NCBI GenBank assembly: GCA_964645755.1
Contig: CAZYBT010000001.1
Span: 25,307-89,306, forward strand
Source: an uncultured Rhizobium sp.
GTDB taxonomy: Bacteria; Bacteroidota; Bacteroidia; NS11-12g; UBA955
DNA: 64,000 nt
Direction: 5' to 3'
Part shown: positions 2,033 to 33,484 of the stretch, piece by piece
Position numbering within the stretch: the stretch's first letter is position 1
Layout of the letters: each line of letters begins with the position of its first letter
The notes under the pieces: model-generated
What the model was told of the DNA's origin: nothing
What the model saw: the letters and a program-made list of their open reading frames with translations, nothing else
Databases searched by the model: none
Program-made: the position numbers and the translations under genes

Positions 2033-2033
2033 A

Positions 2034-9385: not shown

Positions 9386-9386
9386 T

Positions 9387-10286
9387 TTGCAAAAAATAGC
9401 AATTACAGGAGGAACTGGATTTGTAGGATCTAATCTTACAAATTGGTTTTTAATTTCGGGTTACGAAGTTCACCTAATTTTAAGAGAGAACAGTGATTTA
9501 AGCAAAGTTGATACTTCAAATAAAGGGTTGAAAGTTTTTTTCTATAAAAATAACATCGATGAATTACAAGCTTTTTTGATGTCTAACAAACCAAGTTGTG
9601 TGATACATTTGGCATCAAGATTTATTGCAGAACACGAATCACACCAAATTGATGAATTGATTCAAAGTAATATATTATTTGGTTGTCAGCTGCTAGAAGC
9701 AATGCATAGAGCGGGGATTAAATGTTTTATTAATACAGGAACTTCTTGGCAACATTTCCAGAATTCCTCATTCAATCCGGTGAGTTTATATGCAGCCACA
9801 AAACAATCCTATGAAGCATTGATTGATTACTATGTAAGAGCTGAGAATTTTAAAGTAATCACATTAAAGTTATTTGATACATATGGTGAAAATGATGAGA
9901 GGCCAAAACTCATCAACTTGCTTTATCAATTTGCAAAAAATAGAAGTGAACTGAGTTTAACTCCTGGTGATCAAAAAATGAATCTTGTTCATATCACTGA
10001 TGTATGTTGTGCATATTCAAAAGCTTTGGATTTGGTATTGAATAAAAGAAAATCTTGCCATTTAAAATATAAGGTTGCTAGTCCAAATGCTTATTCTATA
10101 AAAGAGATCATAATACTCTTTGAATCATTGTCAGGAATGAAGATCAATGTTGTATGGGGTGGTAAACCATATAGAAAAAGGGAAGTAATGGAGCCTTGGA
10201 ATGGTGGAGTTTTGCTTCCAAATTGGTCTGCGAAAATAACTTTACATGAGGGGCTATTACGTTATATTACGAAACACAACCCATGA
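9387..10286 (+). CDS. NAD(P)-dependent epimerase/dehydratase-family SDR. Likely a CDP-4-keto-dideoxyhexose reductase (CDP-abequose/paratose/ascarylose synthase-like).
   Basis: ITGGTGFVGSNL Rossmann motif. 299 aa, the same size as RfbJ/RfbS. YxxxK present (YAATKQSYE). Confidence 0.7.
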   Translation: MQKIAITGGTGFVGSNLTNWFLISGYEVHLILRENSDLSKVDTSNKGLKVFFYKNNIDELQAFLMSNKPSCVIHLASRFIAEHESHQIDELIQSNILFGCQLLEAMHRAGIKCFINTGTSWQHFQNSSFNPVSLYAATKQSYEALIDYYVRAENFKVITLKLFDTYGENDERPKLINLLYQFAKNRSELSLTPGDQKMNLVHITDVCCAYSKALDLVLNKRKSCHLKYKVASPNAYSIKEIIILFESLSGMKINVVWGGKPYRKREVMEPWNGGVLLPNWSAKITLHEGLLRYITKHNP

Positions 10287-18034: not shown

Positions 18035-19140
18035 AATTAATAAATAAACTTAAACAAAATTTAATTTCGATTCCTGGTACAAAGGTTAATCGAAAATTGG
18101 TAATTTTTGAGTCAGACGATTGGGGAGCAGAGAGAATTCCAGACAAATCAACGAAAGACGAACTGCTTCGTTTGGGATTGATGGATAAAAAAAACAAATT
18201 TAATTTAATCGATACTTTAGAAAGCTCTGATGATTTGATTTCACTGTATGATTTGTTGTCTAAATATAAAGATCGCAATGGTAGAACGCCTGTTATTACA
18301 ACCAATTTTTTAACGGCGAATCCGGATTTTGAACAAATTAAACGCAGTGAATTTCAAGAATATCATTACGAATCTATTGAAAAAACCTATGAAAAAAAAG
18401 CTGATAATCAGAGTGTTTTGAACTTAATTTTAGAGGGAAAACAATCTGGATTAATAAGGCCTCAATTTCATGGTAGAGAACATATTCATGTTACCCAATG
18501 GATGAGAAGGTTGAATATTGATGATTCAGTATCCCGAAAATCATTTGATTTTGGTGTTTTTTGCTTAGATGATAATGGTGGTGGACATCGTGAAAATTTA
18601 ATGGCCGCATTTGATTATCAAACTGAATCTGAGGTTGATTTAATGAATGATATTTTCATATCTGGCTATCAACAGTTCGAAAAGATTTTTGGATATAAAT
18701 CAAAATCAATGATTGCTCCATGTTACGTTTGGGGAAATAACATTGAAAAAGTTTCGAGTGATTTGGGGGTCAATTTCATTCAAGGTATATTCAATCAATA
18801 TATTCCAACATTGGGTGATGAAAAGTATCATTTAACATGGCATTTTTTGGGTGATAAAAATAAATTTGGTCAGCGCTATCTGGTGCGGAATGCATTTTTT
18901 GAAGTATTTGAAAACGATCAAATGGATTATGTAGATACATGTTTAAAGCGAATTGAAATTGCATTTAGATGGGGAAAACCTGCTATCATTGGAACGCACA
19001 GAATTAATTTTGTTGGTGGACTCGATGAAAAAAATAGAATGAATTTCCATAAGAAATTAGAAGAATTAATAAAAAAAATGTTACAAAAATGGCCGGATTT
19101 AGAATTTATTTCTACCGACCAATTAGAAAATTATCTTTGA
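18031..19140 (+). CDS. Divergent polysaccharide-deacetylase-like (CE4-like) protein, paralog B.
   Basis: Same motifs (FESDDWGAERIP; QFHGREHIHV). Collinear with the upstream paralog at roughly 35-40% identity. 369 aa. Confidence 0.5.
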   Translation: MKLINKLKQNLISIPGTKVNRKLVIFESDDWGAERIPDKSTKDELLRLGLMDKKNKFNLIDTLESSDDLISLYDLLSKYKDRNGRTPVITTNFLTANPDFEQIKRSEFQEYHYESIEKTYEKKADNQSVLNLILEGKQSGLIRPQFHGREHIHVTQWMRRLNIDDSVSRKSFDFGVFCLDDNGGGHRENLMAAFDYQTESEVDLMNDIFISGYQQFEKIFGYKSKSMIAPCYVWGNNIEKVSSDLGVNFIQGIFNQYIPTLGDEKYHLTWHFLGDKNKFGQRYLVRNAFFEVFENDQMDYVDTCLKRIEIAFRWGKPAIIGTHRINFVGGLDEKNRMNFHKKLEELIKKMLQKWPDLEFISTDQLENYL

Positions 19141-20246
19141 TGGCTTTTGAAAATAAACACATTTTAGACTTACAACCTTATAAGGTGGCAAGTCACAAAA
19201 TTTGGGAAGTAGCATCTTCCGAACGTGCTGAAGTACTGAAACTTGATTGGAATGAAGCAACCGTGCCACCAAGTCCTATGGTGCAAAAACGGATATTAGA
19301 ACTTGTAAGCGGTCCAAATTTCTATAATTTATACCCAGCAACGCATAGTGAAGTATTGCATGAAAAACTCTGCAATTATGCCCAGGTTAAAAAGGAAAAT
19401 CTCCAGTATTTCCCGAGCTCTGATGCTTTGCATGAGTATATAGCAACAGTATTCTTAAGCGAGAAAGATACAGTATTGTTATTAGGTCCAACTTATGATA
19501 ATTTTAGATTAACTTGTGAATCACACGGAGCCAAAACAGAATATTTTAATTATTCGGAAACCTTTGAGTTAAATGTAGAATTTTTTGAGAATAAAATAGA
19601 AAATATTCACCCTAAATTGGTATACATCTGTAATCCAAATAACCCCACAGGAAATTTAATTTCAACGGATTATATCGAAAGCCTGTTACTGAAATTTCCA
19701 AATGTGCTTTTCCTTATAGATGAAGCCTACACAGAGTTTAGCGGTCATTCGGTGAAGGATTTTGCCCATCAGTTTTCGAATTTATTGATCACACGAACTT
19801 TGTCGAAGGCTTTTGCTTTGGCAAATTTTAGAATTGGATATCTCATTTCGTCGGAAGAAATTATACGCAATATCTCAAAAATTCGCAATCCTAAGAATTT
19901 CACTACATTTTCGCAGGAGGCTACAATTGCTGCATTATCGGATGTTGAATATATGCAAAACTATGTTGAGGAAGTAAAAACTGCAAAAGCAAAATTTATC
20001 GATTTTCTTTCTAAAAATGGCCAGAGAATTATTCCTTTCAACGGACACGGAAATTTTATTTTAATTAAGTTTGAATCTGATGAAATTAAAAATAAATTCA
20101 TTGAATTTATGGAGTTCAATAATATTTTCTTGAGAAATTTAACTCATAGTTCTTTGCTAAATAAATGCCTCAGGATCACAATTGGTAATGTAAAACAAAT
20201 GCAATTTGTACAAGATAAAATTACTGAATTTTGGCAGAAAAATTGA
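19140..20246 (+). CDS. Class-II PLP aminotransferase of the histidinol-phosphate aminotransferase (HisC/CobD) family. Predicted sugar-decoration precursor aminotransferase (Cj1437-like).
   Basis: Start at the ATGA overlap (19140). LDLQPYKV…LKLDWNEATVPPSP…YP…; the Lys region is …LITRTLSKAFALANFRIGY (SKxF/GxR motif of HisC-like enzymes). Confidence 0.7.
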   Translation: MAFENKHILDLQPYKVASHKIWEVASSERAEVLKLDWNEATVPPSPMVQKRILELVSGPNFYNLYPATHSEVLHEKLCNYAQVKKENLQYFPSSDALHEYIATVFLSEKDTVLLLGPTYDNFRLTCESHGAKTEYFNYSETFELNVEFFENKIENIHPKLVYICNPNNPTGNLISTDYIESLLLKFPNVLFLIDEAYTEFSGHSVKDFAHQFSNLLITRTLSKAFALANFRIGYLISSEEIIRNISKIRNPKNFTTFSQEATIAALSDVEYMQNYVEEVKTAKAKFIDFLSKNGQRIIPFNGHGNFILIKFESDEIKNKFIEFMEFNNIFLRNLTHSSLLNKCLRITIGNVKQMQFVQDKITEFWQKN

Positions 20247-20908
20247 ATCAAAATATTGTAATTTTTGATTTCTGTGAAACATTGGTCAATTTTCAAACTG
20301 CAGATGCCTACGTTGATTTTGTTCGGAGAAAATTGAACCATCCCAGAATGAAATTTCTTGAATGGATTTTGACATTTTTAATCAAGACAAAAATTATTTT
20401 GATTTTATATAAACTGTTTCCATATCATTCTATTGAGAAAAGAATAAAATTATATCAATTAAAAGGTTTCAGTAAAACTCAATTGATTGAATTTGCAGAA
20501 CAGTTCTATTTACAAAGAATCAAACCCAATACAATTGATCCAGTTTTGCACTTAATGCGTAATTATCAGTTGAATAATGATGTGATTTATATTGTTTCGG
20601 GTGGATATTCAATTTATCTAGATTTCTTTTGTAACGAATTTAACATCCCTCATTTATTTTCAACAAAAATTGAATTTCAAAACAATATTTGTACAGGGAA
20701 AATAAAAGGATTAGATTGCCTTTATCATCATAAAATAAAATTGTTGGTGGATAAAGGAATTGAAAATGGACAAGGAATTGTTTGTTATACTGATAGTATT
20801 ACGGATTTGCCTTTGTTAGATTTTTGTGAAACTGGTATTGTTATTTCGAAAAACTTTGAACAGGCTTGGGCAAAAAAATACGGGTTTAAACAGTTGATTT
20901 GGAGTTAA
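20231..20908 (+). CDS. HAD-superfamily phosphatase (phosphoserine-phosphatase-like subfamily IB).
   Basis: N-terminal HAD motif I variant IVIFDFCETLV. Downstream SGG and C-terminal D residues (YTDSITDLPLLD). Confidence 0.6.
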   Translation: MAEKLNQNIVIFDFCETLVNFQTADAYVDFVRRKLNHPRMKFLEWILTFLIKTKIILILYKLFPYHSIEKRIKLYQLKGFSKTQLIEFAEQFYLQRIKPNTIDPVLHLMRNYQLNNDVIYIVSGGYSIYLDFFCNEFNIPHLFSTKIEFQNNICTGKIKGLDCLYHHKIKLLVDKGIENGQGIVCYTDSITDLPLLDFCETGIVISKNFEQAWAKKYGFKQLIWS

Positions 20909-21846
20909 TGAAGCGTTTTTTTTCTAATTTAAAATATACAGGTAGAGTTGGTTTTTATTTATTTTTATTTATTGTAAAAATTTATAAATTATGCGTAAAT
21001 TATATTTGGCCGGATAAATATTATTTGAAGAAAAAATTTAAATTCTATCATGGGTATGATTTGGATTGGAATAATCTGAAATCATTGAATGAGAAAATGC
21101 AATATTTCAAAATTTATGATCGAAACCCGAAATATGTCAATCTCTCAGATAAGTATAAAGCGAGAGATTTTTTCGAGAATGAGTTTGGAGCTAATTATTT
21201 AATTCCTTTGATCATGCAAACTCAAAATGTTGAAGATTTGAGGCCGGACAATTTGCCCGATTATCCAGTAATAGTGAAAGCAAATCATGATTCTGGAAAT
21301 TTTAGAATTATTCGAAATAAAGATGAGTTTGACTTTAAAAAATTGCAAGTAGATGCAAAATTTTGGATGAGCATGAACTATTATTGGGAAGATCGTGAAT
21401 GGCCATATAAACATGTTGAACCGAGAATAGTGGTTGAAAAATTGCTTTTGACTCAAGAGGGTAAAATTCCGAATGATTATAAATTGAATTGTTTTAACGG
21501 AAAGGTTGAATTTGTTTATGTTTCGGTTGATAGAGAAGGTATAAACAAACGGAACATATATAGCCGTTCATGGGAGCCCTTAAATTTCACTTGGAATAAA
21601 AAATATTACGATCATTCAACTCTTCGTGGCCCTGAAATAGATCCCCCTGAAACATTTCCATTAATGCTTGAATTTGCTGAGAAAATTGCGAAGGACTATC
21701 AATATGTGAGGGTTGATTTTTATGATGTTGATGGGAAATTGTATTTTGGTGAAATTACACAATATCACGGTGGAGGATTCGATCAAATGCTTCCTCGAGA
21801 GTGGGATTACAAGTTTGGAGAAATGATCAATGTGGAAAGAATATGA
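20899..21846 (+). CDS. TupA-like ATP-grasp amidoligase.
   Basis: 315 aa. VIVKANHDSGN…EPRIVVEKLL…PNDYKLNCFNGKVEFVYVSVDR…NIYSRSWEPL… matches the characteristic TupA-like ATP-grasp layout (D-Y-K-x-x-C-F-N-G). Confidence 0.7.
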   Translation: MELMKRFFSNLKYTGRVGFYLFLFIVKIYKLCVNYIWPDKYYLKKKFKFYHGYDLDWNNLKSLNEKMQYFKIYDRNPKYVNLSDKYKARDFFENEFGANYLIPLIMQTQNVEDLRPDNLPDYPVIVKANHDSGNFRIIRNKDEFDFKKLQVDAKFWMSMNYYWEDREWPYKHVEPRIVVEKLLLTQEGKIPNDYKLNCFNGKVEFVYVSVDREGINKRNIYSRSWEPLNFTWNKKYYDHSTLRGPEIDPPETFPLMLEFAEKIAKDYQYVRVDFYDVDGKLYFGEITQYHGGGFDQMLPREWDYKFGEMINVERI

Positions 21847-23791: not shown

Positions 23792-24950
23792 ACGTATTCT
23801 TATTATTTCGGTTTTCGGTAAAGTCAGAGAAGAAAGCAATGACCGGGTAAACAATCTTTATGATTTTTCTCCTTTTAAATCAAAGAAAATTGTGACCACA
23901 AATTTTAGTCATCATAACAAAGCTAAAAGGGTGGGTCCCGACATAAGAAATGTAGACTACATTGAGGTACCTGAATATCGTAAAAACCTAAGCTTTAACC
24001 GAATATGGTCGCATTGGGTATTTGCTTTCAGGTTGTATTTTTATTTGAGGGACATTCAAGAAAAACCAGATGTTATTTATTGTGTGCTTCCAACGCCAAC
24101 TTCAGGATTAATAGCTGGTTGGTACGCAAAAAAGCATAAAATTACTTTTGTGACCGATATCATCGATGTGTGGCCCGATGGTTTGTTTCCTATAAATTCG
24201 GTATTCAATAAACTCAAATGGATTTTCAAACCATGGGAAATACTGTCTGCGAAAGTTTATAGAATGTCGGATTTTATCTGTGCTGCAAATAGAAGTTATG
24301 CTTCAATAGCAAGAAGGTATGTAACAGATATTCCTGTAAAACATTTTTATCTTGGCACAAGTTTTGATAATGAAAATAGTCAAACCATTTTAAATCCGAT
24401 TTCAAAACCATTGGACGAGATTTGGATAGGATATGGTGGTAATTTAGGACATCTTTACGATTTTGATCTCATGATAAATGGAACTCTGGAGGCGATGCAA
24501 AGCACACAAATGAAAGTAAGGTTTATACTTGTGGGTGGGGGTGTTTTGGAAGATGAACTCAGACAAAAATTAACAAAAGTAAATGACCTTCCATATCTTA
24601 TCACTGGTAATGTTGGCTATCAAGAATTCATGCAATATTTAGAAAAGTGTGACATATGTCTCAATTTATTTAAAGCAAATGCACTTATTTCGATGAGCTA
24701 CAAACTTTATGATTATTTTGCTTGTAAATCATTTGTAATGAATAATTTAACAGGAGATGCGGACGAAATAATTAATGAGTTTGCTGTTGGTTTGAATGTG
24801 AATAACGAAAATTTCAGCCAAAAATTAACCGAAGCAATGATTTATTTACCAACTTTTCAAAAAGAAAAACATGAAAAATTTGAAAAAGTTTATCGCGTAT
24901 TAGATAGAAAAAAAATTATACAATCAATCTACCAATTTATACAGAAATGA
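23781..24950 (+). CDS. Probable GT-B glycosyltransferase (WbuB-like).
   Basis: 389 aa. N-terminal …ILIISVFGK… and C-terminal …YKLYDYFACKSFVMNN… regions are consistent with GT4-like enzymes. Weak. Confidence 0.5.
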   Translation: MRDKRILIISVFGKVREESNDRVNNLYDFSPFKSKKIVTTNFSHHNKAKRVGPDIRNVDYIEVPEYRKNLSFNRIWSHWVFAFRLYFYLRDIQEKPDVIYCVLPTPTSGLIAGWYAKKHKITFVTDIIDVWPDGLFPINSVFNKLKWIFKPWEILSAKVYRMSDFICAANRSYASIARRYVTDIPVKHFYLGTSFDNENSQTILNPISKPLDEIWIGYGGNLGHLYDFDLMINGTLEAMQSTQMKVRFILVGGGVLEDELRQKLTKVNDLPYLITGNVGYQEFMQYLEKCDICLNLFKANALISMSYKLYDYFACKSFVMNNLTGDADEIINEFAVGLNVNNENFSQKLTEAMIYLPTFQKEKHEKFEKVYRVLDRKKIIQSIYQFIQK

Positions 24951-25585
24951 AAACCATTAAATTTGACTCTCAAAAATTAAACTTTAAAGCTAGATTCGAA
25001 CAATTTTTGAATCTGGGTCTTCTCGAAAATTTAAATCTTGAAATTGAGGTTTTAAAACGTGAAAATGATCAAAAAACACCAATTCACACCGTGTATTACG
25101 AATGGGCGAGAACTGAAGAATTTCAAAATTTGTACGTTGAACTATTAAGAGATTATGTAAAGCCATTATATGACGGAGAGGAAATTGTTTATCAGAAAAT
25201 TCCAACTTTTAGGGTTGCATTTCCAAACAATATTGCTGTAGGAGAATTCCATAAAGATAAGGCCTATAGAGATTTATCTTGGGCAGAACAAGTGAAAGAA
25301 GATAACTTTTTTTTACCTTTCACAGATGCCTTCGATACCAATACAATTTGGGTTGAATCTGAAGAAGACAAGGGCGATTTTGCACCAATGAATTGTGAAT
25401 ATGGAAATACTATTCAATGGAATGGTAGTAATTTAACTCATGGTAACAAGATCAATGAAACTGGAAAAGCGCGCGTGAGTGTTGATTTTAGAGTCATTAG
25501 AATGTCGAACTACACCCCAAGCACCAAAGGTTCAATTAATATGAATGTTGGATTTGCCATTGGTGGTTATTACGATGTAATTTAA
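24947..25585 (+). CDS. Hypothetical soluble protein of unknown function within the polysaccharide locus.
   Basis: 212 aa ORF coupled (ATGA) to the flanking GT gene. No motifs I can assign. Confidence 0.4.
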   Translation: MKTIKFDSQKLNFKARFEQFLNLGLLENLNLEIEVLKRENDQKTPIHTVYYEWARTEEFQNLYVELLRDYVKPLYDGEEIVYQKIPTFRVAFPNNIAVGEFHKDKAYRDLSWAEQVKEDNFFLPFTDAFDTNTIWVESEEDKGDFAPMNCEYGNTIQWNGSNLTHGNKINETGKARVSVDFRVIRMSNYTPSTKGSINMNVGFAIGGYYDVI

Positions 25586-25595
25586 ACTGATTGAA

Positions 25596-26198
25596 TTGAT
25601 TTATTTAGTTTTTAAAACTTTCTTTGATTTTCTTTTTGCACTTTTGCTTTTGATTTGCTCAACTCCCGTTTGGCTATGGCTGTTGTTCAAGTTTAAATTT
25701 GATCTGAATAAAATTATTTTTTTTCAACCACGTCCAGGTAAAAATGGAAAGATTTTCAATTTAATTAAATTCAAAACAATGACAGATGAAACGGATGAAA
25801 ATGGAAACTTGCTTCCTGATAAGTATAGGTTGACAAAGTTTGGTAAATTTTTAAGATCCTCTTCATTTGATGAACTCCCACAGATGATCAACGTTTTAAA
25901 AGGTGATATGAGTCTTATTGGCCCGCGTCCATTATTGGTTTCGTATTTGCCTCTCTATAACGAAAGACAAATGAAACGTCACAACGTAAAACCTGGAATT
26001 ACCGGTTGGGCCCAAATTAATGGGCGTAATGAACTCACTTGGGCAGATAAATTTGAACAAGACGTATTTTATGTTGAGAATATTTCATTAAAATTGGACC
26101 TAATTATCTTTTGGAAAACAATTGTGAATGTAATGAATCGACAAGGAATCAGCGGAGAGGGAACAGAAACGATGACACCATTTAAAGGAAATAATTGA
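25596..26198 (+). CDS. Small PglC/WbaP-C-terminal-type phosphoglycosyltransferase (initiating undecaprenyl-phosphate sugar-1-phosphate transferase).
   Basis: Single N-terminal TM segment, then …FNLIKFKTM…KFGKFLRSSSFDELPQMINVLKGDMSLIGPRPLL, the bacterial sugar transferase signature. Confidence 0.85.
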   Translation: MIYLVFKTFFDFLFALLLLICSTPVWLWLLFKFKFDLNKIIFFQPRPGKNGKIFNLIKFKTMTDETDENGNLLPDKYRLTKFGKFLRSSSFDELPQMINVLKGDMSLIGPRPLLVSYLPLYNERQMKRHNVKPGITGWAQINGRNELTWADKFEQDVFYVENISLKLDLIIFWKTIVNVMNRQGISGEGTETMTPFKGNN

Positions 26199-26199
26199 C

Positions 26200-26844
26200 A
26201 TGAAACCAATCATTATATACGGAGCCGGCGGTTTTGGAAAAGAAATTGCTTGTTTGATTAATGAAATCAACGAAATTGAACCAAAATGGGAGATCCAAGG
26301 ATTTTTAGATGATGGTTTGCCCGTTGGAACCGAAATTAAGTACGGAAAAGTTCTAGGAGGTATCGATTTTATCAATCAATATGAAACTGAAATTGCAGTC
26401 GTGTTCTCCATTGCAAATGCTCTAATTTTAGAAAAAGTGGTTTCTAAAATTACCAATACTAAAGTTTATTTCCCTAACATTATATCACCTGGCGTAAAGT
26501 TTTATGATAGTCCTTCCTTTAACATTGGAAGAGGGAATGTAATCTCGAACGGGTGCAGATTTAGTTGTGATGTATTGGTTGGTGACTTTAACTTATTCAA
26601 TGGCTTTGTTGCTGTTGGTCATGATGTTACACTTGGTAATTTTAATATTTTTAGTCCTTCTTCTCGTTTATCAGGTGGGGTCCAAGTGGGACACAAAAAT
26701 TTTTTTGGGGTTAATTCTATCGTACTTCAAGGCATTACAATTGGCAATGAAACCAAAATTGGTGTCATGAGTGTATTGATGAAAGATACAAAAGATGGAT
26801 ATTTGTACTTTGGTAATCCAGCCAGGAAATTAACAGAGCAATGA
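26200..26844 (+). CDS. PglD/NeuD/WeeI-family sugar N-acyltransferase (N-terminal Rossmann-like domain plus left-handed beta-helix).
   Basis: MKPIIIYGAGGFGKEIA N-terminus characteristic of PglD/NeuD. C-terminal hexapeptide repeats (VGHDVTLGNFNIF…GVNSIVLQGITIGNETKIG). Confidence 0.75.
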   Translation: MKPIIIYGAGGFGKEIACLINEINEIEPKWEIQGFLDDGLPVGTEIKYGKVLGGIDFINQYETEIAVVFSIANALILEKVVSKITNTKVYFPNIISPGVKFYDSPSFNIGRGNVISNGCRFSCDVLVGDFNLFNGFVAVGHDVTLGNFNIFSPSSRLSGGVQVGHKNFFGVNSIVLQGITIGNETKIGVMSVLMKDTKDGYLYFGNPARKLTEQ

Positions 26845-27911
26845 GTTTTTTAAATATTCCAAATGTTTCTATTACGGGAATTGCGTCTAGTGTCCCTCCT
26901 GAAAAAATAGAGAATTTAACTTCTCCAATTTTCGATTGTGAAGAGGATGCTACTCGATTTATCGAAACTACTGGAATTTTAAGAAGAAGGGTTGTGGGAA
27001 AATCAAATGTTTGTACTTCAGATTTGTGCATCGATGCTGCAGAAAAATTGATTGCAACTAAACATTGGCACAAAGAAGATATTGATTGTTTGATTTTTGT
27101 AACTCAAACACCAGATTACATTTTACCTGCAACCTCCTGCATTATTCAAGACAGGTTAGGATTGTCAAAAGAATGCTATTCCATTGATATTTCACTGGGC
27201 TGTTCAGGTTGGGTCTATGGACTATCTGTTATTGGTTCATTGATGCAAGGTGGTATGTTTAAAAAGGGACTACTTTTGGCTGGAGATACAACCACTGTTT
27301 CTAAATCTTCAAAAGATAAGAGTACCTTCCCTTTGTTTGGTGATGCGGGGACTGCAACGGCTTTAGAATACAACGAAAATTCAGCGGGTATGAAGTTCCA
27401 TTTTGGAACGGATGGATCAGGATTTGAATCAATCATGATTCGAGATGGTGGATTTAGACACCCGTTTTCGGCAGAATCTTTGGTTGAAAAGGAGTTTGCT
27501 GGTGGAATTATTCGCAACGAATTGCAAAGCATTTTAAATGGTGCCAATGTATTTACTTTTGGCATTGGACGTGCTCCAAAATCAGTGAAAGCGCTTATAG
27601 AGAAATTTGGTATTCAACTAGAAGAAGTAGATTTTGCTGTTTTTCATCAAGCAAACAAAATGATGAATGAAAAAATTCGAAACAAGTTAAGTCTACCCGA
27701 AGAGAAAGTGCCGTATTCAATCTCCGATTTTGGAAATACTTCTTCAGCCTCAATACCATTAACAATGAATTTAAAATTATTGGAAAAACTGAAATCCCAA
27801 AAAAATAAGATCATTGCTTGTGGCTTTGGTGTGGGATTATCTTGGGGTACTGTATACTTTGAAACTGAAAATATTGATTGTCCTGAAATTCAGGAATATA
27901 AATTAAACTAA
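26841..27911 (+). CDS. 3-oxoacyl-ACP synthase III-like condensing enzyme (KASIII/FabH family), copy 1.
   Basis: FabH-like topology: …LIFVTQTPDY…SLGCSGWVYGLSV (active-site Cys)…FHQANKMMNEKI…FGNTSSASIPL…CGFGVGLSWG. Confidence 0.8.
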   Translation: MSFLNIPNVSITGIASSVPPEKIENLTSPIFDCEEDATRFIETTGILRRRVVGKSNVCTSDLCIDAAEKLIATKHWHKEDIDCLIFVTQTPDYILPATSCIIQDRLGLSKECYSIDISLGCSGWVYGLSVIGSLMQGGMFKKGLLLAGDTTTVSKSSKDKSTFPLFGDAGTATALEYNENSAGMKFHFGTDGSGFESIMIRDGGFRHPFSAESLVEKEFAGGIIRNELQSILNGANVFTFGIGRAPKSVKALIEKFGIQLEEVDFAVFHQANKMMNEKIRNKLSLPEEKVPYSISDFGNTSSASIPLTMNLKLLEKLKSQKNKIIACGFGVGLSWGTVYFETENIDCPEIQEYKLN

Positions 27912-27913
27912 CT

Positions 27914-28141
27914 ATGGAAGAGAACTTTATTAAACTTTTTAGAGAAACTTTAGAAATTGAAGATCGAGAAATATCTGTAAATGATGCATTTAGAGATTTT
28001 CCTGAATGGGATTCATTGGCATTGCTTTCTGTGATTGCAATGATTGATGATGAGTATGATATAATCATTGAAGGAAATGATTTTGCCAAATTAAAAACTG
28101 TTGGCGAACTCATTGATACAATTAAAAAAATGCAAGCTTAA
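27914..28141 (+). CDS. Acyl carrier protein (dedicated).
   Basis: 75 aa, four-helix pattern, phosphopantetheine-attachment motif …DFPEWDSLALLSVIAMI. Confidence 0.8.
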   Translation: MEENFIKLFRETLEIEDREISVNDAFRDFPEWDSLALLSVIAMIDDEYDIIIEGNDFAKLKTVGELIDTIKKMQA

Positions 28142-29201
28142 TTTGGCAATTCTAAGATTTAATGGCGTTGGAATTACGGCACTTGCAGGTGCTGTACCGA
28201 AAAACGTGATTAAAAATTTAGAATATACAGATCATTTTAATCGCAACGACGTTCAAGAAATTGTTGAAAAAACAGGCATCTATGAACGAAGGTTTGCTCC
28301 TAAAGGTATGTGTGCGAGTGATTTGTGTTTTGCCGCTGCAGAACGCGTGATTTCAGACAATCATATTGACAAATCTGAAATTGATTTATTGGTGTTTATT
28401 TCTCAAACCCCAGATTATCGAATGCCGGCAACGTCAATATTGCTTCAAAACCGGTTGGGTTTGTCGAAGCATACAATGGCCTTTGATATCAACTTGGGTT
28501 GTTCCGCTTTTGTTTACGGATTATCAGTTGTTTTTTCACTCATGGAAAGGAGTAATTTCAAGAGAGCTTTATTACTTGACGGTGAAACACGATCAAGGAT
28601 ATATCATCCAAAGGATAGAAAAACGGCTTTTTTATTTGGGGACGGAGGCGTGGCAGCAATAATTGAACGAGATCAAAAATTTGGCCAGAGTATTTTCTCT
28701 TTGGGTAGTGATGGTTCAAAATCCGATTTGATTTCAATGAAATCTGGTGGTTACAGATACGAAACGAATCTAGATAGTTTAACAGAGAATGTCATTGATG
28801 AACATGGAAATGTATCAACAGACAATCACGGAAGAATGGATGGAGGTGAGGTTTTTAATTTTGTGTTGAAGGAAATTCCAACAAACATCAAAGAAATTCT
28901 TCTTGAATCAGGATTGGAACAGTCGCAAATAGATTATTTTATTTTTCATCAAGCCAATCAATTTATGAACGGTTATTTACAAAAGAAATTCAAAATTGAA
29001 GATTCTAAGTTTCCATTGTCTATTGGTAAATTCGGCAACACCTCATCGGTTTCCATACCGCTGACAATGGTGAGTGAATTGAGTGATAAAATGCAAAACT
29101 CAAAAAAGATATTGCTGTGCGGATTTGGAGTTGGCATGAGTTGGGCGAGCGCGATTTTAAAAACAGATAACCTTAAAATTTCTAATTTAATTGAAATATG
29201 A
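28101..29201 (+). CDS. KASIII/FabH-family condensing enzyme, copy 2. The exact start is uncertain: TTG at 28101 or TTG near 28146.
   Basis: …LVFISQTPDYRMPATS…NLGCSAFVYGLSV…FHQANQFMNGYL…FGNTSSVSIPL…CGFGVGMSWA. About 30% identical to copy 1. Confidence 0.75.
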   Translation: MANSLIQLKKCKLNLAILRFNGVGITALAGAVPKNVIKNLEYTDHFNRNDVQEIVEKTGIYERRFAPKGMCASDLCFAAAERVISDNHIDKSEIDLLVFISQTPDYRMPATSILLQNRLGLSKHTMAFDINLGCSAFVYGLSVVFSLMERSNFKRALLLDGETRSRIYHPKDRKTAFLFGDGGVAAIIERDQKFGQSIFSLGSDGSKSDLISMKSGGYRYETNLDSLTENVIDEHGNVSTDNHGRMDGGEVFNFVLKEIPTNIKEILLESGLEQSQIDYFIFHQANQFMNGYLQKKFKIEDSKFPLSIGKFGNTSSVSIPLTMVSELSDKMQNSKKILLCGFGVGMSWASAILKTDNLKISNLIEI

Positions 29202-29962
29202 GCAACCCTTTTGACTTAACGGGTAAAAGAATATTGGTTACAGGAGCCTCTTCGGGAATTGGTAGGTCTGTGGCCATAGAATGCAGTAAACTTGGAGCAG
29301 AATTGGTTTTGATGGGCAGAGATGAAGGTAGATTAATTGAAACATTGAATTTATTGAACCCCGGCAAGAATCATATATATGTTGCTGCTGATTTCGAGGG
29401 TGGTGTAGATTTAGAAAAACTCACGAATATCATTCAAGGAGGAAATAAATTAAGTGGCTTGGTAAATTGTGCAGGTGTAACTTCAACTTTGCCAATTAAA
29501 AGTATTCAAAAAAATAGATTACAAAGTACTTTTGATGTTAATGTTTTTGGAGCCTTTGAAATGGCGAAATGGTTTACCAAAAAATCAATTGTAGATGCAA
29601 ACGGGGGTAGTATTATTTTCATTGCTTCAATAATGGGTCAAATGGGAGAGGTTGGAAAAACACTATATTCAATGTCCAAAGGTGCATTAATTTCTGGAAG
29701 TCGTTCTATGGCTTTGGAGTTGGCTTCAAAAAACATCCGTGTTAATTGCATTTCTCCTGGTGTTGTCTTAACTCCCATGGTAGAGAATGGAGTATATGCT
29801 AAAGATGTCGCATTGTTTGATCAAGTAAAGCAAAAACATCCACTTGGAATTGGCGAAGCGATTGATGTTGCCAACGCTGTCGTTTTTTTATTATCGGGTG
29901 CAGCAAAATGGATTACAGGAACAAATTTGATCGTAGATGGTGGCTACACCGCAGGTAAATAG
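29198..29962 (+). CDS. Short-chain dehydrogenase, 3-oxoacyl-ACP reductase (FabG)-like.
   Basis: ILVTGASSGIGRSVA (TGxxxGxG). …ASIMGQMGEVGKTLYSMSKGAL (S…YxxxK catalytic motif). Confidence 0.8.
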   Translation: MSNPFDLTGKRILVTGASSGIGRSVAIECSKLGAELVLMGRDEGRLIETLNLLNPGKNHIYVAADFEGGVDLEKLTNIIQGGNKLSGLVNCAGVTSTLPIKSIQKNRLQSTFDVNVFGAFEMAKWFTKKSIVDANGGSIIFIASIMGQMGEVGKTLYSMSKGALISGSRSMALELASKNIRVNCISPGVVLTPMVENGVYAKDVALFDQVKQKHPLGIGEAIDVANAVVFLLSGAAKWITGTNLIVDGGYTAGK

Positions 29963-30200
29963 GGTTTTTGTGATAAAATGTTATACGTTTAACACAAAAT
30001 TAGTATCATTCAAGTTTTCTTAACATACGGGTTTTGTTTAATTTTGTAAGCACAAATTTAGAATCAAGAGAACTACAAATTATTTTTGGCAAGGTTCTTG
30101 ATTAAGTCAAATCAAACAATGAAAAACTTAACAGCAAAAATCATCATTGAAACAACATCAATTAATTTTGATGTGATTTTTGCAATTCTTAGAAATTCTT

Positions 30201-31406
30201 ATGACACTCAAAAATATCTTAAAAAATAAACTTAATCTAAAATCAATAGAGCTCGAATCAGAAGTTGGAAATACATCTTCTGAGAGAATTTGGTTATCAT
30301 CACCGCACATGAGCGGACATGAACAAAAGTACATTGCTGAAGCATTTGCCACAAATTGGATTGCCCCGTTGGGTTCAAATGTAGATGGATTTGAAAATGA
30401 TGTTTGTGAATACACAGGTGCTCAACACGGTGCGGCTTTGTCTTCTGGAACCGCAGCAATTCACCTCGCATTAAAGCTTTGTGGTGTGGGCCAAGATGAT
30501 TATGTAATTTGTCAGAGTTTCACTTTTGTTGCTACTGCAAATGCAATTGTTTATGAAAAAGCCATTCCAATTTTTGTAGATTCAGAGCCCGATACTTGGG
30601 GAATGGACCCCAAATTGATGGAAAAAGCAATTTTACATTGTATTTCTTTAGAGAAAAAACCAAAGGCGATTATCCCAGTTCACTTATATGGCATGCCTGT
30701 TAAGATGGATGAAATCATGGAAATTGCGAACAAGTATAAGATTCCAGTCATTGAAGATGCTGCTGAAGCACTTGGTTCAACAATCAATGGTAAACAATGC
30801 GGAACCTTTGGTGACTATGGCGTTATAAGTTTTAATGGCAACAAGATTATCACAACATCTGGTGGTGGAATGTTGTTGTCAAATACTAAAGAAAAAATAG
30901 AAAAAGCGAGATTTTTATCTACCCAAGCTCGTGATGTTGCTCCACACTACCAACATAGTGAAGTAGGATATAACTATCGAATGAGTAATGTTTTAGCGGG
31001 AATTGGACGTGGGCAAATGGAAGTCATTCAAGACAGAGTGAATCAGCGCAGATATAATTTTGAATTATACAAAAAAGAACTATCGGGTATTCCGGGAATT
31101 TCTTTTTTGGAGGAACTCGATGGATTTAAAAGTAATAGATGGTTGACAATTATCATTGTAGATTCGAAGTTAACAAATGGTGTTACCAATGAAGACTTAA
31201 GAATTGCTTTAGATTCAGAAAATATTGAATCAAGACCACTTTGGAAACCAATGCACATGCAACCACTATTTGAAAAGCAACCTTACTTCGGAAACGGAGT
31301 GGCGATGAAGTTATTCAAAACTGGACTTTGTTTACCAAGTGGAAGCAATTTGAAAGAATCAGATTTAATGAGAGTTGTTAAAGCCATTAAATCGCAGTTT
31401 AAATAA
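30201..31406 (+). CDS. DegT/DnrJ/EryC1/PglE-type PLP sugar aminotransferase (nucleotide-4-keto-6-deoxy-sugar 4-aminotransferase).
   Basis: …LSSPHMSGHEQKYIAEAFATNWIAPLG…IEDAAEALGSTINGKQCGTFGDYGVISFNGNKIITT (Schiff-base Lys region). Confidence 0.8.
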   Translation: MTLKNILKNKLNLKSIELESEVGNTSSERIWLSSPHMSGHEQKYIAEAFATNWIAPLGSNVDGFENDVCEYTGAQHGAALSSGTAAIHLALKLCGVGQDDYVICQSFTFVATANAIVYEKAIPIFVDSEPDTWGMDPKLMEKAILHCISLEKKPKAIIPVHLYGMPVKMDEIMEIANKYKIPVIEDAAEALGSTINGKQCGTFGDYGVISFNGNKIITTSGGGMLLSNTKEKIEKARFLSTQARDVAPHYQHSEVGYNYRMSNVLAGIGRGQMEVIQDRVNQRRYNFELYKKELSGIPGISFLEELDGFKSNRWLTIIIVDSKLTNGVTNEDLRIALDSENIESRPLWKPMHMQPLFEKQPYFGNGVAMKLFKTGLCLPSGSNLKESDLMRVVKAIKSQFK

Positions 31407-31465
31407 TTTTCTTTTCTACTGTATCAGCAGTAGATTTGCAGTTCCTATATCAATAGGAATCTTCA

Positions 31466-32899
31466 ATGTCAGTTAAAAGTAAAAGTGTTATCGTAATTGG
31501 TGCTGGTCCAGCGGGTTTAACAGCCGCCTATGAATTAGCAAAGAAAGGAGCCAATGTTACGGTGGTTGAGTCCACCTTGGCAGTTGGAGGTATGGCCAGA
31601 AGTTTTGAACTCTTTGGTCAAATCGTTGATTGTGGTCCTCATAGATTCTTTTCAAGTGATAAAATTGTGAACGATTTGTTCCATGAGGTAGTGCAAGATG
31701 ATTATACTTTGGTAAATCGTTTAACACGTATCTATTACAAGAATAAGTTCTTTGACTATCCTTTGAAATTGGGTAATGTACTCAAAAATTTGTCCCCAAT
31801 TGAAATCATTGGAATCCTTTGGAGCTATGCAGTGGTTCGAATTTCAGGCAAAAAGAATCTTGAAACTTTTGAAGATTGGGTTACAGATAAATTTGGTAAA
31901 AAATTATTTCAAATGTTTTTCAAAACGTATTCTGAAAAATTATGGGGAATAAGATGTGATCAAATTGATTCAGATTGGGCTGCTCAAAGAATTAAAAAGC
32001 TATCTCTTTATGAAGCTGTAAAAGCCGCGATTTTTGGCAACAAGGGCAATAAACATAAAACATTAGTTGATCAATTTGCCTACCCTAAAAATGGTACTGG
32101 AGAAGTTTATGAGAAAATGGCAAATGCCATTCAAAACATGGGAGGAACAATCCTATTTCATAAAAAAATAGCAAAAATTAATGTAGATAACCAAAAGATG
32201 ATTACTTCCATAGTAGATTCTGATGGACTAGAATACAAAGCCGACCATTATATTTCAACCATGCCTTTAACCTTATTGCTTCAAGGTATGTCTCAAATAG
32301 ACCAAAATGTATTGGAAATTTCTAAGAAATTGTACTTTAGAAACACAACCTTGGTTTACTTAGAAATTGATACAGACAAACTTTTCCCAGATAATTGGAT
32401 TTATGTTCATTCACCGGAAGTAAAACATGGTAGAATTACAAATTTTAGAAACTGGTGTCCTTCAATCAATAAAGATAAAAAGACAACAATTTTATGTCTA
32501 GAATTTTGGAGTTTCGACCATGAAGAGCTTTGGAATTATTCAGATGAGCAACTGAATCAACTCGCGGCCACTGAAATCCGAAAATTGAATCTGATCAATG
32601 CTGAATCAAAGATTTTGAATCAGTCTGTAATGCGTATTCCTAAATGTTATCCGGTATATGAAACAGGATATATGGATTATTTACAGCCTGTGATAGACTA
32701 CCTAAAAGGATTTCACAATTTGCATCCAATTGGTCGTTATGGTTCATTCAAATACAACAATCAGGATCATTCAATTTTGATGGGAATTCTCATTGCTCGA
32801 CAACTCGATTCAGGAAAGGATCAAAAGCTATGGGATATCAATACAGACTCTGATTACCAAGAAGAAACAGAAATTAATTTAACTGGTTATAACGTCTAA
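31466..32899 (+). CDS. NAD(P)/FAD-dependent oxidoreductase (amine-oxidase/protoporphyrinogen-oxidase-like fold). Last gene before the terminator.
   Basis: N-terminal dinucleotide fold VIVIGAGPAGLTAAYELAKKGANVTVVES…VGGMARSF. Confidence 0.55.
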   Translation: MSVKSKSVIVIGAGPAGLTAAYELAKKGANVTVVESTLAVGGMARSFELFGQIVDCGPHRFFSSDKIVNDLFHEVVQDDYTLVNRLTRIYYKNKFFDYPLKLGNVLKNLSPIEIIGILWSYAVVRISGKKNLETFEDWVTDKFGKKLFQMFFKTYSEKLWGIRCDQIDSDWAAQRIKKLSLYEAVKAAIFGNKGNKHKTLVDQFAYPKNGTGEVYEKMANAIQNMGGTILFHKKIAKINVDNQKMITSIVDSDGLEYKADHYISTMPLTLLLQGMSQIDQNVLEISKKLYFRNTTLVYLEIDTDKLFPDNWIYVHSPEVKHGRITNFRNWCPSINKDKKTTILCLEFWSFDHEELWNYSDEQLNQLAATEIRKLNLINAESKILNQSVMRIPKCYPVYETGYMDYLQPVIDYLKGFHNLHPIGRYGSFKYNNQDHSILMGILIARQLDSGKDQKLWDINTDSDYQEETEINLTGYNV

Positions 32900-32920
32900 A
32901 CGAGTAATAAAGAATTTTAA

Positions 32921-32949
32921 AGCCTCCATTTTTGGAGGCTTTTTTTTTG
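32921..32949 (+). terminator. Rho-independent terminator closing the polysaccharide locus.
   Basis: agcctcca-tttt-tggaggct perfect 8-bp stem followed by a T9 run. Confidence 0.8.
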
Positions 32950-32986
32950 ATGGTTCTCGCTGAAATTAAATTAACTTTGTCAACTC

Positions 32987-33484
32987 ATGCAAATTTCACT
33001 CATCGCTGCAATTGGTCAGAATTTTGAACTCGGAGCCAATAATGATTTGCTTTGGCACCTTCCGATAGATTTTAAGTGGTTTATTCAACACACCAAAGGC
33101 AAGCCAGTGCTTATGGGTAGAAAAACCATGGAAAGTCTTGGTAAGCCTCTAAAAAACAGATTGAATTTAGTTCTAAGCCGTTCAAACCCAAATTTAGTTG
33201 AAGGTTTTCATTTAGTTTCAAACATTACAGAGGCCATTGATAAAGTAAACGAAGAGAGTTATGATGAACTTATGATCATTGGTGGTGCCCAAATTTATGA
33301 GCAAACAATTGATGTTTGCGATCGATTAATTATTACCCATGTTGCTGCTAATTTTTCTCAAGCAGAAACATTTTTTCCAAAGGTAAATTTCCAAGATTGG
33401 AATTGTGTTTTTTCTGAAAAACATCAAGCCGATGAGCAACATGCTTATCCATTTGAATTCTGCATATACGAGAAATACGTTTAA
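32987..33484 (+). CDS. folA: Dihydrofolate reductase.
   Basis: MQISLIAAIGQNFELGANNDLLWHLPIDFKWFIQHTKGKPVLMGRKTMESLGKPL…LSR, the classical DHFR signature. 165 aa. Confidence 0.9.
   Translation: MQISLIAAIGQNFELGANNDLLWHLPIDFKWFIQHTKGKPVLMGRKTMESLGKPLKNRLNLVLSRSNPNLVEGFHLVSNITEAIDKVNEESYDELMIIGGAQIYEQTIDVCDRLIITHVAANFSQAETFFPKVNFQDWNCVFSEKHQADEQHAYPFEFCIYEKYV

Follow-up and report, generated by a model that had tools for sequence, protein, structure and literature searches.

Seven co-directional genes lie at 25596-31406 on the forward strand of the window, by which the whole stretch of 64,000 nucleotides that was analysed is meant. They stand at the end of a Bacteroidota surface-polysaccharide locus and most likely constitute a cassette for a hydroxyacylated amino sugar. 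Open reading frames and domain searches returned the gene content and order given in the original prediction, namely a PglC-like phosphoglycosyltransferase (PGT), a PglD/NeuD-family acyltransferase (AT), a KASIII-like condensing enzyme (KS), an acyl carrier protein (ACP), a second KASIII, an SDR ketoreductase (KR) and, after a gap of 238 bp, a PglE-like aminotransferase (Table 1). The surrounding locus is of the Wzx/Wzy type, with wza/wzc at 1253-4433, glycosyltransferases and a flippase, and genes for a CDP-3,6-dideoxyhexose are found elsewhere in it. Start and stop codons overlap by 4 nt at the AT/KS1 and KS2/KR junctions and the remaining junctions of the tight cluster are gaps of 1-2 nt; as the cassette genes overlap or abut in this way, a single operon is suggested. 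The order is not a product of chance, since it recurs identically in many species-level genomes. On sequence alignment or motif inspection, the expected catalytic residues are intact in every part of the cassette.

Table 1. Positions and predicted products of the cassette genes and of the features downstream of them.
Feature	Position	Strand	Description
PglC-like small monotopic phosphoglycosyltransferase	25596..26198	+	200 aa, TTG start
PglD/NeuD-family left-handed beta-helix N-acyltransferase	26200..26844	+	214 aa; PglD_N and Hexapep
KASIII-like condensing enzyme 1	26841..27911	+	356 aa; ACP_syn_III and ACP_syn_III_C
Dedicated acyl carrier protein	27914..28141	+	75 aa; PP-binding, E 7e-9
KASIII-like condensing enzyme 2	28143..29201	+	352 aa from TTG 28143
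Classical SDR ketoreductase, FabG-like	29198..29962	+	254 aa; adh_short_C2, E 2e-49; KR domain
Intergenic gap, ketoreductase/aminotransferase	29963..30200		238 bp
PglE-like PLP-dependent sugar 4-aminotransferase	30201..31406	+	401 aa from ATG 30201
FAD/NAD(P)-dependent oxidoreductase	31466..32899	+	477 aa; NF005548, 547 bits; Amino_oxidase domain
Terminator-like hairpin	32919..32942	+	10-bp stem, then T run; closes the unit

The PGT matches Bac_transf (E 3e-58) over positions 1-178 of the 179 in the profile, and its best solved relative is PglC (8e37/8g1n; E 6.5e-67, residues 6-200). Asp92-Glu93 of the DELPQ motif are present, and the enzyme is predicted to transfer an acylated amino-sugar-1-phosphate to undecaprenyl phosphate. 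The public gene call shortens this protein to 139 aa. The open reading frame listed for the aminotransferase spans 30180-31406; the ATG at 30201, which is that of the public gene call, is most likely the start and yields the intergenic distance that had been reported previously, and the alignment with PglE begins at residue 29. The aminotransferase matches DegT_DnrJ_EryC1 (E 6e-97), scores 404 bits against the TIGR04181 LegC family (cutoff 420), has Campylobacter jejuni PglE (1o61/4ztc) as its best solved relative (E 1e-106) and contains Lys215 in an NGNK motif.

The AT reaches 142.6 bits against TIGR03570 (NeuD/PglB/VioB), which is under the cutoff of 160.8. The solved structures that match the AT best are those of WeeI (4m9c; E 1e-21, full length), PerB, VioB and the acetyltransferase domain of PglB, the closest of these, WeeI, being a UDP-4-amino-sugar N-acetyltransferase. 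His141 aligns with the PerB residue that is mutated in 4eaa/4eab and is invariant in 14 homologues. No ACP-docking feature or extra docking domain was identified in the AT, which resembles an ordinary PglD-type enzyme of 214 aa. The AT is predicted to acylate the 4-amino group of a UDP-sugar with the chain carried by the cassette ACP, and hydroxyacyl-ACP rather than acetyl-CoA is the predicted donor because the AT subfamily is divergent and is tied genetically to the ACP, KS and KR genes.

Both KASIII copies carry the anticipated catalytic Cys, in CSGWV and CSAFV motifs, and alignment to Escherichia coli FabH showed the Cys-His-Asn triad, whose examination had been proposed, to be complete in each. 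Cys121/His269/Asn299 of KASIII-1 align with C112/H244/N274 of FabH, and the triad of KASIII-2 is Cys120/His269/Asn299 (352-aa numbering). It is kept in 32/32 orthologues of KASIII-1 from related loci and in 27 of the 28 of KASIII-2, the last having an alignment gap at Asn274; among 110 KASIII homologues from these loci, the single exception is a gap at the Asn column. The two copies are 40% identical. The open reading frame listed for KASIII-2 runs from 28101 to 29201, whereas its homologues begin with MALL/MADL at 28143, so that the TTG at this position, one base past the ACP stop, is most likely the start; the protein exceeds the cutoff of NF006829 (256 bits versus 249). Among solved structures, both copies are closest to 4efi (Burkholderia xenovorans) and 3gwa (B. 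pseudomallei), with E values of 6e-63 and 8e-61, respectively, for KASIII-1. An insertion that follows the FabH 'loop' region has a full counterpart in the alignment with 3gwa and a shorter, partly gapped one in that with 4efi. These structures are uninformative on primer choice, since they are structural-genomics entries under generic KASIII names for which the database output gives no function. Trp32 and Arg36 of FabH, which contact CoA, are conserved in neither copy.

The cassette ACP scores under every housekeeping AcpP cutoff and has Ser34 in a DSL motif. The KR, with TGASSGIG at 15-22 and Ser144, Tyr157 and Lys161 present, is the predicted 3-oxoacyl-ACP reductase for the cassette. Together with the KRs of two related loci (L006 and L007) and the first KR of Imperialibacter, it makes up a minority lineage, whereas the main lineage comprises 29 loci. 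Most cassettes of the same architecture have a KR to which it is only ∼40% identical, so that the reduction pattern or stereochemistry may differ.

The gap before the aminotransferase gave no Rfam match above noise; it has an RNA-fold z of -2.5 and an inverted repeat around 30062-30103, is only partly conserved in L006 and L007, and is possibly an internal promoter or a regulatory hairpin. Downstream of the aminotransferase, the FAD oxidoreductase is a possible last gene of the transcription unit, and its membership of the pathway is uncertain. The hairpin that follows has by far the longest stem of three terminator-like sites in 24800-33100, the other site on the forward strand having 5 pairs.

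As the original prediction had stated, no PglF/CapD-type 4,6-dehydratase is present in the window: Pfam scans of the remaining open reading frames revealed none, and a tblastn search with the PglF-like protein of a related locus matched only a CDP-glucose 4,6-dehydratase, at 25% identity. Neither PglF nor FabD nor AcpS was found in the window, in ∼4 kb of left flank taken from a sister assembly or in 10 kb of right flank. In related loci, a 650-aa Polysacc_synt_2 (PglF-type) dehydratase follows the aminotransferase.

The linkage of these genes was assessed in 63 species-level genomes with an AT homologue (48-84% identity) and at least 6 kb of downstream sequence. All 63 have a KASIII within 7 kb downstream of the AT homologue; over the same distance a KR occurs in 61 and an ACP was detectable in 59. 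The commonest architecture is PGT-AT-KS-ACP-KS-KR(-AmT), where AmT is the aminotransferase, and a PglC-like gene ends no more than 300 bp upstream of the AT homologue in 44 of 71 loci.

This kind of cassette is already known. The earlier remark that its genetic basis is poorly defined no longer holds, as the 3,5-dihydroxyhexanoyl substituent of Qui2NAc4N in the Flavobacterium psychrophilum O-antigen was attributed in 2019 to wfpB-G, pglE and pglF, by matching structure to genes rather than by enzymology (Cisar, Bush & Wiens, 2019; PMC6519341); the window provides a further example. In that assignment wfpB is a PglC homologue, wfpC and wfpE are KASIII genes, wfpD encodes the ACP, wfpF the KR and wfpG a PglD homologue. 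The acylated sugar was determined chemically and lies at the reducing end of the repeat, and strains without wfpC-G are antigenically different (PMC6519341). The assignment now serves in-silico serotyping (FlavoTyper preprint, 2026). No enzyme assay for any member of this type of cassette was found in the literature searched.

Common to the two organisms are a 200-aa PglC-like PGT, two different KASIII enzymes, an ACP of 75-76 aa, one KR, a PglD-family AT of 214-216 aa and PglE, as well as the proposed logic, in which acyl-ACP would acylate UDP-Qui2NAc4N and the acylated sugar would be the first residue. However, F. psychrophilum has pglF, which the window locus lacks, and the rest of its locus contains rml and fnl genes instead of those for a CDP-3,6-dideoxyhexose. 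One KS is of 356 aa in the window and 333 aa in F. psychrophilum (WfpC), the KR is of 254 versus 242 aa (WfpF), and WfpG is reported to be 34% identical to PglD, whereas the window AT matches PglD weakly (E 6e-7). Compared by reported lengths and identities rather than by sequence, the two cassettes may be analogous sets of genes and not orthologues.

Other systems resemble parts of the cassette. With respect to the C. jejuni Pgl system, which makes UDP-diNAcBac through PglF, PglE, PglD and PglC, the PGT is closely related to PglC and the aminotransferase to PglE, in both cases over the full length, and the AT shares the two-domain layout and catalytic His of PglD; however, it represents a divergent subfamily under the TIGR03570 cutoff that is linked to ACP, KS and KR genes in a locus without PglF. 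In Vibrio cholerae O1, the rfbK-O genes of the O-antigen locus provide the tetronate N-acyl group of perosamine. As is predicted for the window, a private ACP and a hexapeptide-repeat transferase attach a short hydroxy acid to the amino group of a 4-amino-4,6-dideoxy sugar, but an AMP-binding ligase and LuxC/LuxE-like enzymes are used rather than KASIII condensation, an architecture resembling that of some related loci (Bacteroides luti, L063) and not that of the window. LpxA and LpxD of lipid A synthesis demonstrate that the left-handed beta-helix fold can use an (R)-3-hydroxyacyl-ACP donor and a UDP-sugar acceptor; these are weaker matches to the AT, with similarity limited to the hexapeptide repeats, and unlike the AT they belong to another subfamily, use long-chain donors and have extra C-terminal helical domains.

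The cassette is probably an 'R-group' module in which 3,5-dihydroxyhexanoyl-ACP is made, the AT transfers the acyl group to a 4-amino sugar and the PGT loads this sugar first. The intact catalytic residues, the linkage in 63 genomes and the F. psychrophilum parts list support the functional reading proposed originally, in which the ACP, two KASIII enzymes and the KR feed a PglD-family N-acyltransferase. UDP-GlcNAc would be converted by a PglF-type dehydratase, whose gene would lie elsewhere in the genome, to the UDP-4-keto-6-deoxy sugar, from which the aminotransferase, to judge from its close match to PglE, would form UDP-2-acetamido-4-amino-2,4,6-trideoxyhexose. The private ACP would be phosphopantetheinylated and then loaded with malonate by housekeeping FabD, neither of the enzymes for these two steps being encoded in the window. 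One KASIII would join an acetyl primer to malonyl-ACP and the KR would reduce the 3-oxo group to give 3-hydroxybutanoyl-ACP; the second KASIII would add another C2 unit, and a further reduction would give 3,5-dihydroxyhexanoyl-ACP. These steps are proposed by analogy with F. psychrophilum, in which the same set of parts occurs with a product proven chemically, and both hydroxyls would be kept because the block contains no dehydratase or enoyl reductase. The AT would then take the acyl chain from the ACP and attach it, instead of acetyl, to the 4-amino group, a step suggested by its strict linkage to the KS, ACP and KR genes, and the PGT would load the acylated sugar-1-phosphate onto undecaprenyl phosphate, where this sugar would begin the repeat unit. 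The nature of the product (dihydroxylated C6 or hydroxylated C4, and its stereochemistry) and the direct use of acyl-ACP are inferred, here as in the literature.

The usual primers of KASIII enzymes are acyl-CoAs. That a KASIII should extend a 3-hydroxybutanoyl thioester is thus hypothetical and unproven, which counts against the explanation preferred here. The unconserved Trp32 and Arg36 positions, the minority-lineage KR, the ordinary appearance of the AT, the failure to find PglF, FabD and AcpS in the window and the flanks covered, and the differences from the Wfp proteins count against it too. The same pathway might instead stop at 3-hydroxybutanoyl (C4), the other KASIII being redundant, loading the primer or preferring a different one. 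In many related loci an ACP and a KR are accompanied by just one KS (AT-ACP-KR-KS and AT-ACP-KS-KR, for example), so that a working cassette needs no more than one; in addition, N-3-hydroxybutanoyl amino sugars are commoner than dihydroxyhexanoyl ones, and V. cholerae O100 has both groups. Nevertheless, this outcome is considered unlikely, as neither copy has lost any residue of the triad and each belongs to a conserved orthologous group of its own across more than 25 species, and F. psychrophilum, the one organism in which a cassette of two KS and one KR can be set beside a known structure, makes the C6 dihydroxy acyl group.

It is rather unlikely that the pathway delivers some other short acyl group, such as a 3-oxo-5-hydroxy or 5-oxo-3-hydroxy form, another stereoisomer or a product processed further by housekeeping FabZ/FabI or the neighbouring FAD oxidoreductase. 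The minority lineage of the KR, which in Imperialibacter is paired with a second KR, the position of the FAD oxidoreductase within the same terminator-bounded unit and the 29 architectures with extra tailoring genes among related loci, which make product diversity the rule, point in this direction. However, the block has no dehydratase, enoyl reductase or second KR, and the FAD oxidoreductase is no general companion of the cassette: it adjoins the aminotransferase in L006 and L007 (81-87% identity), and the only other locus with it is L011, where a 34% identical relative occurs. Finally, in size and fold signature the AT resembles acetyl-CoA users, its best solved relatives are acetyltransferases and it has no identifiable ACP-docking feature, but it is very improbable that it is an ordinary acetyl-CoA-dependent PglD making diNAcBac beside KS-ACP-KS-KR genes for an unrelated product (an O-acyl substituent, a lipid or a small polyketide), since in all 63 genomes its clade has adjacent KS genes, even where the gene order is reshuffled, no other candidate for offloading the ACP exists among the open reading frames of the window, and several related loci have a second, more PglD-like AT (30-36% identical to that of the window) adjoining the aminotransferase, which suggests separate acetyl and acyl functions.

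With the parts list linked to such a sugar since 2019, the remaining value of the locus lies partly in a cassette family that is widespread and modular, and partly in a PglD-family enzyme for which acyl-ACP is the predicted donor.

The original prediction described a phosphoglycosyltransferase (PGT), a PglD/NeuD-family acyltransferase (AT), a first KASIII (KS1), an acyl carrier protein (ACP), a second KASIII (KS2), a ketoreductase (KR) and a PglE-like aminotransferase (AmT), in this order, and both the gene set and the order were borne out by ORF calls and family scans. The seven closely spaced genes lie on the + strand at 25596–31406 (see table) and form the end of a ∼30 kb Wza/Wzc/flippase/glycosyltransferase locus beginning at 1253. 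The junctions are gaps of 1–2 nt or overlaps of 4 nt, with PGT ending 1 nt before AT, and this spacing is typical of one operon. PGT is cut to 139 aa in the public gene call; when it is started at TTG 25596, the protein regains the complete N-terminal membrane helix of a PglC-like enzyme (25596–25778). The start of KS2 was placed directly after the ACP stop because its homologues have 351–352 aa and the first residues MALL or MADL; the longest KS2 ORF runs 41 nt into ACP (28101–28142). For AmT, the ATG used in the public gene call is the most plausible start, and with this start the predicted gap of 238 bp before the gene (29963–30200) is also confirmed.

Features of the cassette and of its surroundings (window positions)
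Feature	Position	Strand	Description
CDP-sugar genes	5693–10286		glucose-1-phosphate cytidylyltransferase, CDP-glucose 4,6-dehydratase, RfbH (E1; 698 bits), RmlC-like epimerase, reductase
Three-gene module	19089–21846		hisC-like class I/II aminotransferase, HAD-IB phosphatase, TupA-like ATP-grasp enzyme
ORF 5' of PGT	24947–25585		212 aa
PGT	from 25596	+	Bac_transf phosphoglycosyltransferase, 200 aa
AT		+	PglD_N plus hexapeptide acyltransferase, 214 aa
KS1		+	KASIII, 356 aa
ACP		+	PP-binding, 75 aa
KS2	from TTG 28143	+	second KASIII, 352 aa
KR	29198–29962	+	classical SDR, 254 aa
Inverted repeat	∼30062–30103		AATCAAGAGAAC ... GGTTCTTGATT
AmT	from ATG 30201, after gap	+	DegT-family aminotransferase
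Oxidoreductase	31466–32942 (including hairpin)		FAD/NAD(P) oxidoreductase, NF005548, 547 bits
Hairpin	32919–32942		terminator-like

Downstream, AmT is followed by the FAD/NAD(P) oxidoreductase, by the hairpin, which has the longest stem in the region, and by housekeeping genes (DHFR, Omp85 and NAD kinase). The oxidoreductase is also the neighbour of AmT in L006 and L007, two of the related loci fetched for their AT homologue (L numbers), and may belong to the cassette unit. Directly 5' of PGT, the 212-aa ORF matches nothing in Pfam and resembles TIGR04324 (`sporadic carbohydrate cluster 2OG-Fe(II) oxygenase') only weakly and over part of its length; a copy that is 92% identical occupies the equivalent position in L006. 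The gap between KR and AmT contains an inverted repeat and is only partially conserved in L006. A riboswitch or sRNA at this site was rejected, as Rfam gave no match above noise and the RNA-fold z-score was only −2.5. Promoter scans with sigma-70 and Bacteroidetes-type (TTTG...TAnnTTTG) patterns gave counts that were not above chance. Elsewhere in the polysaccharide locus, the three genes at 19089–21846 stand together as a module that looks like one making an amine or amino alcohol and amide-linking the product to an acidic sugar. In addition, Wzy_C (O-antigen ligase/polymerase-like) and Wzz-like genes were observed ∼8–10 kb to the right of the window on the same contig (L087, 293–2809), indicating a second envelope-glycan region nearby.

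The acyl-forming part of the cassette comprises a private ACP, two different KASIII enzymes and one KR, and includes neither a dehydratase nor an enoyl reductase. On alignment with Escherichia coli FabH, the Cys-His-Asn triad was found to be intact in both condensing enzymes (C121/H269/N299 in KS1; C120/H269/N299 in KS2, 352-aa numbering), which are 40% identical to each other. The triad is also kept in all but one of 110 KASIII homologues from the related loci, the exception being an alignment gap in the Asn274 column. Because the triad is retained in both copies, it is unlikely that either acts as a CerJ/ChlB6-like acyltransferase. Against the 249-bit cutoff of the KASIII model NF006829, KS2 scores above (256.3 bits) and KS1 below (225.0 bits). 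Trp32, Arg36 and Arg151 are CoA contacts of FabH; the corresponding residues are Arg, Thr and Lys in KS1 and Glu, Lys and Arg in KS2. Since Trp32 and Arg36 are kept in neither enzyme, the primer and carrier preference may differ from that of FabH. The DSL serine of ACP is Ser34, and KR has a TGASSGIG motif with Ser144, Tyr157 and Lys161; comparison of KR with solved structures gave no match at E 1e-45. KR groups with only six others, namely those of L006 and L007 and the first of the two KRs in four Imperialibacter loci (L030, L031, L038 and L040), and lies outside the 29-member KR lineage found in most cassettes of the same gene order. This minority position suggests that the reduction pattern or stereochemistry may differ.

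AT contains PglD_N (E 2e-10) and Hexapep (E 6.5e-7) domains and can be aligned from end to end with WeeI (4m9c), the UDP-4-amino-sugar N-acetyltransferase of Acinetobacter baumannii. Its His141 is aligned with His141 of PerB, the residue mutated in entries 4eaa and 4eab, and is invariant in an alignment of 14 diverse homologues. The score against TIGR03570 is 142.6 bits, below the cutoff of 160.8, which places AT in a divergent subfamily. The linkage of AT to KASIII, ACP and KR genes argues for acyl-ACP rather than acetyl-CoA as the predicted donor; no tested precedent for the direct use of acyl-ACP by a PglD-type enzyme was found in the literature. A second PglD-family gene stands beside AmT in five related loci, L012 (∼12282), L030 (∼12954), L048 (∼15201), L049 (∼14568) and L058 (∼15169). 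These genes are 30–36% identical to AT of the window, and such pairs point to distinct enzymes for acetyl and for acyl transfer within a single locus.

PGT matches PglC along its whole length (E 6.5e-67); it is a single-domain protein of ∼200 aa that has a membrane helix at the N terminus and carries the Asp-Glu dyad. The closest characterized relative of AmT is PglE of Campylobacter jejuni (E 1e-106); the protein has the DegT fold, with Lys215 in NGNK as the PLP lysine. It scores 404.3 bits against TIGR04181 (cutoff 420), and its sequence is compatible with either a gluco or a galacto 4-amino product. The absence of a PglF/CapD-type dehydratase from the window, noted in the original prediction, was upheld by tblastn and Pfam scans. 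When the PglF-type protein of a related locus was used as the query against the window, the only match was the CDP-glucose 4,6-dehydratase (25% identity), and no Polysacc_synt_2 domain was found by Pfam scans of the other window ORFs. Neither flank yielded a PglF, in ∼4 kb to the left of the window taken from a sister assembly or in 10 kb to its right. In the related loci of Flavobacterium paronense (L032), L072, Ferruginibacter (L008) and F. aciduliphilum (L010), a 650-aa Polysacc_synt_2 protein directly follows AmT. The dehydratase thus normally accompanies the cassette and, as the window locus has none, must be encoded elsewhere.

Two other sugar pathways were considered. The CDP-sugar genes of the locus were ruled out as the source of the acceptor because they specify a 3,6-dideoxyhexose route without an amino sugar; a reductase of the E3 kind (ddhD/ascD-type) was not observed at any position in the window. 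A legionaminic or pseudaminic acid pathway, raised by a LegC-family match, was likewise ruled out, since the locus has no NeuB-, NeuC- or NeuA-type genes. As the CDP route lacks an amino group and nonulosonic acid synthase genes are absent, the product of AmT is the only plausible amino sugar for AT.

The main evidence that the ACP system supplies AT with its acyl group comes from the relatives of AT. More than 1,600 were found at E ≤ 1e-10 in the protein collection, the top 120 being at least 54% identical. A profile scan with one genome per species gave 372 coding matches, from which the best 80 loci were fetched (48–84% identity). By record title, these best 80 are mostly from Bacteroidota (Flavobacterium, Ferruginibacter, Imperialibacter, Cecembia, Bacteroides, Parabacteroides, Alistipes, Prevotella and Muribaculum), with a few from Chlorobi and Opitutales MAGs. 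Neighbours were counted by tblastn with the window proteins in the 63 loci that extend 6 kb or more 3' of AT. Within 7 kb of AT, KASIII was present in all 63, an SDR in 61 and a detectable ACP in 59; the four loci without an ACP match are in a class with ACPs of only 26–34% identity, which readily escape detection. A PglC-like gene ends at most 300 bp 5' of AT in 44 of 71 loci, and a PglE-like gene lies inside the fetched flank in 36 of 80. Gene order is variable, with 29 distinct arrangements; the commonest is PGT-AT-KS-ACP-KS-KR-AmT, that of the window, and some loci instead contain a single KS, a second KR or additional modules (AMP-binding ligase, GNAT, second ACP, LuxE-LuxC fusion, metallo-beta-lactamase-fold protein and DUF218). 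Cultured species with differing architectures include Flavobacterium paronense, F. aciduliphilum, Ferruginibacter paludis, Cecembia lonarensis, Bacteroides oleiciplenus and B. luti. It is this invariable linkage, kept despite rearrangement, that points to ACP as the source of the acyl group. Extra acyl modules after AT were observed in L063 (11717–15625), L069 (9759–14834) and L079 (10676–12141), comprising the AMP-binding ligase, LuxE-LuxC fusion, GNAT, second ACP and metallo-beta-lactamase-fold protein. The ligase, LuxCE and ACP set of such loci is reminiscent of the tetronate genes of Vibrio cholerae O1.

A cassette of this kind has been described in the O-antigen R-group locus of Flavobacterium psychrophilum (Cisar, Bush & Wiens, 2019; PMC6519341). 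It consists of wfpB (a PglC homologue, 200 aa), wfpC and wfpE (KASIII, 333 and 350 aa, with 33% mutual identity), wfpD (ACP, 76 aa), wfpF (KR, 242 aa) and wfpG (a PglD homologue, 216 aa), together with pglE and pglF. A type II FAS-like route to the 3,5-dihydroxyhexanoyl group of Qui2NAc4NR was proposed, in which WfpG moves the acyl group from ACP to UDP-Qui2NAc4N, Qui2NAc4N being the first residue of the repeat (PMC6519341). Strains of F. psychrophilum in which other PglD homologues replace wfpC–G are antigenically different. In a 2026 preprint the wfp genes serve as markers for serotyping, and additional ACP/KASIII sets are described. V. cholerae O100 and Litorimonas taeanensis carry the same acyl sugar. 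Both cassettes have a PglC-like PGT beside the acyl genes, a private ACP with two different KASIII enzymes and one KR, a PglD-family AT within the block, and pglE. However, pglF is present in the F. psychrophilum cluster and absent from the window and its flanks, one KS and KR differ in length from their Wfp counterparts (from the lengths and reported identities in Table S1), and WfpG is reportedly closer to PglD than AT of the window appears to be. No F. psychrophilum sequences were among the best 80 of the 372 loci or the best 120 protein matches of AT and KS2; L080, from a MAG labelled F. psychrophilum, has no adjacent PGT and was not treated as the fish pathogen. No enzymological test of any such cassette was found in the literature searched.

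The window is thus a further example of a kind of cassette with a function that has already been proposed. The mechanism in the original prediction is sound as an interpretation and is supported here; its novelty does not stand, as it was published in 2019 (PMC6519341). The general mechanism, transfer of an ACP-derived short hydroxyacyl group to a bacillosamine-type priming sugar, is considered likely, and the specific assignment of the product as 3,5-dihydroxyhexanoyl is tentative, falling slightly short of an even chance. A wider reading, which we regard as evenly balanced, is that AT represents a large unnamed clade of the PglD family that draws directly on a dedicated ACP, not on CoA, for its acyl group, and that combines with exchangeable KASIII, KR, ligase, GNAT and LuxCE modules into a widespread modular `glycan N-acylation' system. 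Such a system would extend across Bacteroidota, including gut Bacteroides, Parabacteroides, Alistipes, Prevotella and Muribaculum, and also into Chlorobi and Opitutales, and the gene architecture would specify the N-acyl chemistry of the sugar that primes capsules and O-antigens. The window would then be a variant with two KSs and one KR in which the KR lineage has been swapped, and the swapped lineage may specify a stereoisomer not yet seen.

The gain from the window itself is small, one more uncultured example of the proposed function, and the wider interest lies in how large and modular the acyltransferase–ACP family is. In bacillosamine-type sugars the N-acyl groups are dominant epitopes, and the R-group genes alter the antigenicity of F. 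psychrophilum LPS and now serve as serotyping markers. If the mechanism is true, AT would be the first PglD-family enzyme to use acyl-ACP, and the cassette would provide a compact route to 3,5-dihydroxy acids with KASIII as its only kind of condensing enzyme. Furthermore, in hundreds of species of Bacteroidota, including gut commensals, genome sequence could then reveal how the priming sugar is acylated.
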